From a virus (Duplodnaviria; Heunggongvirae; Uroviricota; Caudoviricetes), in IMG/VR virus record IMGVR_UViG_2657245139_000006: DNA of 10,475 nucleotides, one strand, 5' to 3'. Both the position numbers and the translations under genes were made by a program. Shown here piece by piece: positions 5,266 through 6,982 of the stretch (the first letter of the stretch is position 1; each line of letters begins with the position of its first letter). Under the pieces are notes generated by a model. The model was not told where the DNA came from and did no database searches. It saw only the letters and a program-made list of their open reading frames with translations.

Positions 5266-6982
5266 ATGACAGATTCAATAAATGCCAATGTTGTGGTAAG
5301 CATGCCTTCGCAACTATTCACTATGGCTCGTTCTTTTAAAGCCGTAGCCAATGGTAAAATTTATATTGGTAAAATTGACACTGACCCTGTAAATCCTGAA
5401 AACCAGATTCAGGTTTATGTGGAGAACGAAGATGGTTATCACGTTCCTGTTTCTCAACCAATCATCATTAACGCTGCTGGTTATCCGGTATATAACGGGC
5501 AGATTGCCAAATTTGTAACTGAGCAAGGCCATTCAATGGCTGTATATGATGCGTATGGTTCGCAACAGTTCTATTTTCCGAATTTGCTGAAGTATGACCC
5601 TGAACAGCTTCTGCAGTTACTTCAATCTGATGAAGGGGCTACTTACATTGGCACTAATAGCGGGAAAAATCTTCAAGATGAGCTATTTGCAATAAAAAAT
5701 GAAATATATCAAGACCCGCTTACATCGTGGCCTTTCGGTGGAACATTAAAAATAAAGCAAGGGGTGTATGATGTTACCACTCCTCTGGTACTTAATTATG
5801 ATGATTACCCTGCCGACTTTGTAGGTGCTCCGGGTGTCCGCTGTTTTTACTCAGGCGAGAACATGGCTGAGACAATACTGGAATGTAGAGCTACTGATTT
5901 TAACGTAAAAATGCTAGGTGACGCAGCGTTTAACAGTCAGAGATTGGCTGCATATGACTACATCGGCAACATGACGCTGAAAGGGAATCCCGGAAGTTAC
6001 GGTATGCTGGTGCAGAATAAAGCACATACTCGTCTTGAAAACATTGTTATCTGCCGCCACCCTGACGGGGAAGGGTTACGCACTGACTCGATGCTCACGA
6101 GCGACATGACGAACGTGTACTTGCAGAGTAATCGTATCGGTTGGCGTGCTACCAACTCCGTAAATCATTCTGAACTGAACGCTATAACTGCAAATAGGCT
6201 TACGTGCAGTCAGAACAGTGAATGGGGTATCCTCGGGGACCGCTGGGGTGCTGGTACAACTATCAATAGCCTGACTTGTGAAGGAAATGGTACTCAGGGG
6301 GATTCCAGTACAGGTGGTGCGCAATTAGCCATAAATGGCCTTAACGGTTCGTGCGCTTTGGTATTAAACAACCCATACTTTGAGGCTAATGCCGGGGGGG
6401 GCAGACCTTGCTATAGATAATACTGGGACGCGCCCTGTAACTGTGGTTATAAACGGTGGAAATTTTCATCGCGTGAGCAGTGCAAGATACACGCACACTA
6501 ATATTCAAGTAACAAGCTCAGGTGGGGGAAAAGTTACAGTCATACTCAACGGCACAACGTTCCAGAGCGCAGGGGATTATCAGCCAAGTGCAGATCGACC
6601 ATACTGGATAACAGGAGCTAATTGCGAGGTAGTTGACATTGGGTGTGTTTTTACAGAAACAACCAGTAAGGCAACATCGGCTTCTGCATTGTCAGTCACA
6701 CGCTCGGGAAAAATTAACGCCAATGGTAGTATCGACGTTGCTACTGGTGTTTCATCGGTTAACGTGGTTGCTACAGGTGTGTATGAGGTTAGCTTTTCTC
6801 ATCCGCTCGCAGCAGTTGCTAGCGGTTATATTGTGCAGATAACACCTATATCTGCGCCTGATTCAGTTAGTTGTGATGTTACTTATATTGGCGTAGATAC
6901 ATTTAGGGTGACCCTGCGCAATACGCTTAGCGGAGCAGGAATCTCCAGTTCGTTTGCATTTAGCATTACCAGGCTACTATAA
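5266..6982 (+). CDS. tailspike protein (P22 gp9-type head-binding N-terminus); reading frame broken at a G8 tract
   Basis: N-terminus [14 protein letters not shown]...[39 protein letters not shown]...QPIIINAAG...[26 protein letters not shown]...LKYDPEQ matches the conserved head-binding domain of P22-family tailspikes (recalled P22 gp9: MTDITANVVVS...[36 protein letters not shown]...QGHSMAIYDANGSQ...LKYDPDQ). Frame 1 stops at 6418-6420 and frame 2 continues from 6368 to TAA 6980-6982; the only homopolymer in the overlap is G8 at 6394-6401. Removing one G gives a continuous 571-aa product (...[21 protein letters not shown]...). Confidence 0.8.

Follow-up and report, generated by a model that had tools for sequence, protein, structure and literature searches.

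The described proteins closest in build to the tailspike studied here are those of the P22 family (P22 gp9, Sf6 gp14, HK620 gp9 and Sf101), which share its PF09008 N-domain (84–88 % identity to Sf6 gp14N in a fold alignment) and whose parallel beta-helix body and C-terminal domain are also seen in the model of an SfX tailspike homologue. The receptor-binding part of the SfX tailspike is a different module, with no sequence match to the helix of Sf6 or P22 and with about 81 % identity to Sf101 at the DNA level, and a further difference from the P22-family tailspikes is that the gene is frameshifted in the stretch of DNA analysed here (10,475 bp, hereafter the window). According to the SfX papers, the phage integrates at thrW. 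In the literature, the prophage of Shigella flexneri 2002017 is taken as the presumed genome of SfX, and plaque-forming, lysogenising SfX has been induced from this strain (Sun et al. 2011 and 2013).

A split tailspike gene in an SfX-type right arm

The window is an entire draft contig (AZOT01000197.1, assembly GCA_000565765.1; locus L010). We read it as holding the right arm of a P22-like prophage of SfX type at thrW, since its gtrX region matches the SfX record at 100 % identity and both tailspike fragments are found exactly in 2002017. The P22-type ejection genes gp7, gp20 and gp16 are followed by a Mnt/Arc repressor gene, an HNH endonuclease gene, the tailspike gene and the gtr genes (Table 1). 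The gtr operon that had been proposed to adjoin the tailspike was identified there as gtrX, gtrB and gtrA, located after the tailspike and on the opposite strand; the exact 421-aa GtrX protein occurs in 1795 blocks of the sequence collection. A tRNA 3' half further downstream is the probable attR in thrW. As ARAGORN calls no full tRNA at this core, we infer the thrW assignment of the half, and related contigs part from the window sequence at position 9956.

Beyond attR, an integrase remnant is followed by the end of an IS element. The remnant is a 154-aa C-terminal fragment interrupted by the IS; its reading as the sign of a crippled prophage was dropped, as it lies past attR, where sister contigs switch to a different full-length integrase, and it is probably left over from an older element. 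The same 75-bp IS end that closes the contig also adjoins the IS-truncated tailspike remnants of the loci L032, L033 and L036, at the equivalent of position ~6274. A scaffold gap falls within gp20, which encodes the injection translocase, and complete relatives have 97 bp at this place; the 497-aa ORF running across the gap is an artefact, since Ns were translated, and the real gp20 has 475 aa. Between mnt and the tailspike gene lies the HNH/AP2-domain endonuclease gene. An identical 169-aa HNH protein is found directly upstream of many unrelated tailspikes, of 488 to 847 aa, in P22-like prophages of E. coli with differing integration sites, and the gene looks like a mobile, homing-type element that travels with the tailspike junction or targets it.

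Table 1. Features of the window, with positions counted from its first letter.
Feature	Position	Strand	Remarks
Scaffold gap in gp20	767..929		163 N
HNH/AP2-domain endonuclease gene	4669..5208	-	between mnt and tailspike
SfX-type P22-like tailspike gene, +1 frameshift-interrupted	5266..6982	+	571 aa with one G removed
N-terminal fragment ORF	5266..6420	+	384 aa: native 1–378 plus out-of-frame GRPCYR, then TAA
C-terminal fragment ORF	6389..6982	+	197 aa from ATG 6389; frame open from 6368
G8 homopolymer	6394..6401	+	+1 over ancestral G7 (GCC GGG GGG GCA = Ala-Gly-Gly-Ala)
gtrX, intact	7049..8314	-	serotype-specific O-antigen glucosyltransferase; 100 % identical to SfX record L05001.1
gtrB, intact	8327..9244	-	family 2 glycosyltransferase; PF00535, E 1.2e-30
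gtrA, intact	9241..9603	-	PF04138, E 2.6e-13
Putative attR core	9892..9938	+	tRNA 3' half (...GGTTCGACTCCTATTATCGGCACCA); sequence reading
Integrase C-terminal fragment	9953..10417	-	154 aa, past attR
IS end	10401..10475		closes the contig

The original prediction had located a run of eight Gs at 6394–6401 as the point at which the tailspike frame is lost, and GGGGGGGG occupies exactly these positions. The frame opening at ATG 5266 reaches the TAA at 6418–6420 after 384 codons, which reproduces the predicted truncation, and the 53-bp overlap was likewise recovered, as the next frame has a TAA at 6365–6367 and is open from 6368 to 6982. An ORF listing pushes the start of the N-terminal fragment to ATG 5221 (399 aa); the conserved MTDS... 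head-binding N-terminus begins at 5266. The sequence GAGG at 6382–6385 was read 3 nt 5' of the ATG of the C-terminal ORF. Deletion of one G in silico gives a single 571-aa ORF that equals the annotated S. flexneri protein P0137 residue for residue, in agreement with the claim that seven Gs would yield a continuous tailspike; ten Gs, for which the same length had been claimed, would give 572 aa.

The length of the G run is by itself statistically unremarkable: two overlapping matches to GGGGGGG are present in the window, and at least two were obtained in 18 of 200 shuffles. That the frameshift is real follows from the comparison with homologues, which are single-frame here, with either G7 or no homopolymer. 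Both fragments are on record, the N-terminal one as P0121 (ADA72692.1, 'Tail spike protein [Shigella flexneri 2002017]') and the C-terminal one as P0138 (ADA72693.1), each as an exact match, and the 2002017 annotation already shows the split tailspike as two CDSs.

Residues 4–114 of the tailspike match the Pfam family Head_binding (PF09008, E 3e-63), and in a PDB search residues 1–116 match the N-domains of the Sf6 gp14 and P22 gp9 tailspikes. Residues 121–570 match gp13 (9occ_G, E 4.9e-217), the LPS-hydrolysing tailspike of the virulent siphophage Sf11 (PDB 9occ), to which the receptor-binding module is 72 % identical at the protein level; from homology to gp13, the SfX protein would be a homotrimer with O-antigen-cleaving activity. 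The Sf11 tailspike and its relatives carry another N-terminal adaptor, PF18668. The module (~5626–6982) clearly exemplifies how receptor modules are exchanged between phages of different morphotype, here a temperate podophage and a virulent siphophage. Another tailspike of the same family, the 570-aa P0146, bears the NCBI label 'Mogibacterium sp.' (MAG) on contigs of up to 4.69 Mb; this record is probably mislabelled or contaminated and of Escherichia or Shigella origin.

For the fold, we relied on an AF2 model (mean pLDDT 77) of P0004, which is an 84 %-identical 571-aa homologue and not the window protein itself. The model shows beta-helix rungs between about 160 and 460 and, at 479–569, a C-terminal beta domain, and the full-length tailspikes of Sf6 and P22 are its top Foldseek matches, which is consistent with a parallel beta-helix body followed by a C-terminal domain. 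Gly377-Gly378, the two residues encoded by the G run, open a beta-helix strand in this model (377–385). With the break at this strand, the G8 product would lack the final rungs of the helix together with the entire C-terminal domain (379–571). The predicted make-up of the truncated product, head-binding domain plus part of the beta-helix, is thus in line with the homologue model, by which the N-domain and about two thirds of the helix are kept.

Tract length within and between alleles

The tract is G7 and in frame in every other allele read, namely E. coli PapM-32-1, nine of the ten identical-GtrX loci and four IMG/VR loci, and all intact homologues are single ORFs of 570–571 aa. The same Gly-Gly is encoded without a homopolymer in Sf101, E. 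coli G3/10 and Sf11, as GGC GGT or GGT GGT. Compared with the intact orthologues, the frame of the window's gene is broken, and the ancestral, in-frame state is G7; since the distant relatives use other Gly-Gly codons, the homopolymer is not conserved but an accident of codon choice in one lineage. The tailspike of the locus L014 was rejected as a further broken gene, its translated ORF being intact and only the gene call in the record being short.

All G8 loci of the window's allele are 100 % identical over 1948 bp. The G8 form was found in the complete genomes CP001383 (S. flexneri Xv 2002017) and CP020339, in an IMG/VR contig, in drafts of the AZO/AZP, LVI, AWOX, JAQRW/JAQRX, JBDYBL and DAOFJI accession series and also in Logan assemblies, and among the 24 contigs examined for the lineage-specific gp16, at least 22 carry it. 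G7 contigs of this allele were reached by look-up with the same lineage-specific gp16 protein, which is listed in 127 blocks. Two of them (L039, L040) equal the window over 6259 bp with one G as the sole difference, and a third (L051, AZOH01000153.1) shares 10,401 bp with 2002017, again with one G as the sole difference, in a stretch that takes in attR and the integrase remnant and reaches the IS junction. Because the identity of L051 and 2002017 extends across the chromosomal junction, the change from G7 to G8 arose in situ in the integrated prophage. Tract length is therefore polymorphic between these three loci (G7) and the window, L005 and others (G8), which show no other differences over 6.3–10.4 kb, and sister assemblies within one accession series differ, AZOH being G7 and AZOT, AZPX and AZPZ being G8. 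Few flank SNPs were seen among the G7 and G8 contigs compared.

By exact-sequence look-up, the repaired 571-aa G7 product (P0137) was found on 33 contigs, the N-terminal G8 fragment (P0121) on 32 and the C-terminal G8 fragment (P0138) on 33, while none of the G6, G9 and G10 products of this allele is on record; the G8 count is probably too low, as some records call just a 169-aa gene piece. A scan of metagenomes for the tract with its flanks gave no match. The virion genes of the 22-kb region are all called full length in the G8 prophage, and no other lesion was seen in the 10–22 kb compared. Of the inactivating, fixed mutation that had been envisaged, the inactivation is supported for this lineage, in which residues 379–571 are lost, whereas fixation is contradicted by 33 G7 against 32 G8 contigs.

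Some individual contigs deserve mention. Against 2002017 (L045), L007 (AWOX01000024.1, G8) differs by 113 substitutions, without gaps, from ~8900 onward, the first ones listed being in the gp20 region, and its tailspike is 100 % identical despite these substitutions elsewhere; recombination has probably replaced a patch of a prophage that is otherwise the same. Five clustered SNPs at 7704–7827 were seen in L048. In L008/L050 (LVIT01000048.1) and L049 (JAQRXL010000051.1), both G8, gtrA is followed by the att core and then by a full-length integrase, excisionase and early genes (locus positions 8168–13114). This is an attP arrangement, circular or tandem, with no chromosomal DNA after the att core, and it suggests that the G8 prophage had been excised in culture or was replicating there, or that it adjoins a second prophage in tandem.

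For other alleles, the predicted +1 and -1 products were built and looked up by exact sequence. Next to 153 G7 contigs, the L013 allele has 2 contigs with G8 and 1–2 with G6, and next to 162 G7 contigs the L012 allele has 1–2 with G6; the G8 product of the L014/L020 allele (P0144) is found on 5 NCBI contigs. An IS-truncated remnant in other S. flexneri is present as G7 on 45 contigs (P0122) and as G8 on 33 (P0123), and when the remnant loci L032, L033 and L036 are given one more G, the product is exactly P0123. For several rare variants, automated Logan assemblies are the only record, so that assembly error may account for them. With +1 or -1 variants on at least four other allele backgrounds, the tract is a mutational (slippage) hotspot, and as slippage also affects an already dead fragment, in which no functional switch is possible, its instability is a property of the DNA itself.

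Origin and consequences of the eighth G

We consider it probable that the tailspike of one SfX lysogen lineage was inactivated by a single G, inserted by replication slippage (G7 to G8), and that this form became common by clonal expansion, with gtr unaffected. The codons of Gly377-Gly378, GGG GGG followed by G, would have provided the run of seven, and one G would have been gained in the 2002017 lineage, which includes the window's strain, when the prophage was already integrated at thrW. Ribosomes would leave the native frame after residue 378 and stop six codons later, and the resulting 384-aa product would still have its capsid-binding N-domain but only some two thirds of the beta-helix. 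By analogy with the P22 tailspike, such a product should not make a stable trimer. Induced G8 cells would then give tailspike-less, non-adsorbing particles unless the tract reverts, and retention of the serotype X modification follows from the untouched gtrABX. The loss of function would have been neutral, and G8 most likely became common in the lineage by clonal expansion and not by fast or selected switching. As infectious SfX is reported from 2002017, yet the record of this strain is G8, some route to a functional tailspike must exist in the strain or stock; heterogeneity within a culture or a platform-specific homopolymer miscall may be present in any single assembly.

That the run really has seven Gs and the eighth is a homopolymer miscall of sequencing or assembly, one of the options left by the original prediction, is very unlikely. 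Homopolymers are classic error sites on some platforms, the window is a draft contig containing an N gap, its sister assemblies disagree (AZOH against AZOT, AZPX and AZPZ) and some rare variants are on record only from Logan, but random miscalling should yield G6 and G9 as well, neither of which is on record for this allele. The identical G8 in at least 22 of the 24 gp16 contigs, across complete genomes, many draft series and an IMG genome, also speaks against it, and a one-off error is hard to reconcile with recurrence in two complete genomes, the IMG/VR contig, at least six draft accession series and Logan. We also regard as very unlikely a bypass of the frameshift at expression, be it by a +1 ribosomal slip (tRNA-Gly on GGG GGG G), by RNA polymerase slippage with loss of one G or by reassembly of the fragments (1–378 and MP+377–571), that would leave the G8 prophage partly infectious. 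A +1 slip inside the run would, on reading the sequence, keep perfect codon–anticodon pairing and recreate the wild-type Ala-Gly-Gly-Ala, ATG 6389 behind its GAGG could start the C-terminal fragment, infectious phage is reported from a G8 strain, and only 18 tailspike subunits are required by P22-type virions (Sf11 paper). The homologues, however, are single-frame, which shows that no two-frame recoding arrangement is conserved, and after a -1 shift on G GGG GGG a stop follows within about 5 codons; a shift of +1 or -2 is needed, and programmed -1 frameshifting was accordingly rejected as leading into the wrong frame. A search for a stimulatory RNA structure downstream of the run gave nothing unusual (fold z = -0.01), and thus no correctly directed slip with a stimulator was found. 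The break also lies inside a beta-helix strand of the homologue model, a poor site for fragment complementation. The bacterial transcriptional slippage known to us uses A/T runs, not G runs.

A slipped-strand ON/OFF switch, as also proposed at the outset, would make the G7/G8 tract a reversible contingency locus, with lysogen populations always holding ON and OFF prophages and thereby bet-hedging virion infectivity; we regard this as unlikely. Both tract states do occur in otherwise identical prophages with the same chromosomal junction, +1 and -1 events recur across several alleles, reversion would explain infectious SfX from 2002017 with its G8 record, and phage contingency loci have been demonstrated experimentally in T2 and T4. 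Off states, however, are rare on the well-sampled alleles (1–2 contigs each against 162 and 153 G7 contigs), instability is equal in the IS-truncated dead remnant, where a switch could have no function, and the tract is missing from more distant homologues with the same Gly-Gly. The tailspike is moreover a late gene, for which no phenotype is expected in an uninduced lysogen, and in mismatch-repair-proficient E. coli or Shigella, the mutation rate of G7–G8 runs is lower by orders of magnitude than that of classical phase-variable tracts. Simple repeats are also reported to be under-represented in tail-fibre genes (Gomez, Barrick and Waters 2025 preprint). What remains of the proposed switch is the unstable tract with its +1 and -1 events on several alleles, whereas no evidence of a regulated switch was found, the dead remnant varying too. 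If the tract did act as a contingency locus, which is doubtful, most SfX prophages of the epidemic 2002017 lineage would be OFF, and infectious, serotype-converting virions would come only from ON revertants or from tailspike-sharing mixed-genome cells; the spread of gtrX would be gated by homopolymer slippage, and plaque-forming SfX from a strain with a broken tailspike would be explained.

No mention of the frameshifted 2002017 tailspike was found in the SfX and S. flexneri literature searched, and since the reference tailspike is frameshifted and this goes unmentioned, the G7 form is the one to use in comparisons and host-range studies. Frameshifts by slippage are biologically nothing unusual in late genes of prophages; new are the G7/G8 polymorphism on identical backgrounds, the repeated tract changes on several alleles and the contradiction to the infectivity reported for 2002017. 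G8 lineages should donate gtrX poorly by phage, which bears on the spread of the serotype X, Xv and 1d variants, while the broken record as opposed to the plaque-forming phage from 2002017 bears on homopolymer reversion in temperate phage.

Comparison with contingency loci and decaying prophages

The polyG tracts in receptor-binding genes of Campylobacter phages are simple-repeat contingency loci. In the A-runs of T2 agt (Gomez, Barrick and Waters 2025 preprint), a homopolymer change of one unit up or down in a phage coding region likewise shifts the frame, with both states present in nature. The SfX tract resembles these loci in that its length within the coding region sets the frame (G7 571 aa, G8 384 aa). 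It does not behave as a tract maintained by selection, given the synonymous Gly-Gly codons of Sf101, E. coli G3/10 and Sf11 and the equally variable dead remnant. The T2 and Campylobacter-phage loci show high reversible rates and a pay-off for both states, and unlike the known contingency loci, the SfX tract is short (7–8) and conserved only within the SfX clade.

The slippage loss that we favour also finds a parallel in the SHI-O-type decay of S. flexneri serotype-converting prophages, in which gtr is likewise kept and virion genes are lost. Related S. flexneri loci carry IS-truncated tailspikes (P0035; P0122 in L032, L033 and L036), and 19 prophage genes are lost in NCCP 15744. Unlike the SHI-O remnants, the G8 prophage of 2002017 differs from L051 only by the frameshift over 10.4 kb, and it looks like a first decay step or a reversible lesion, not a remnant.
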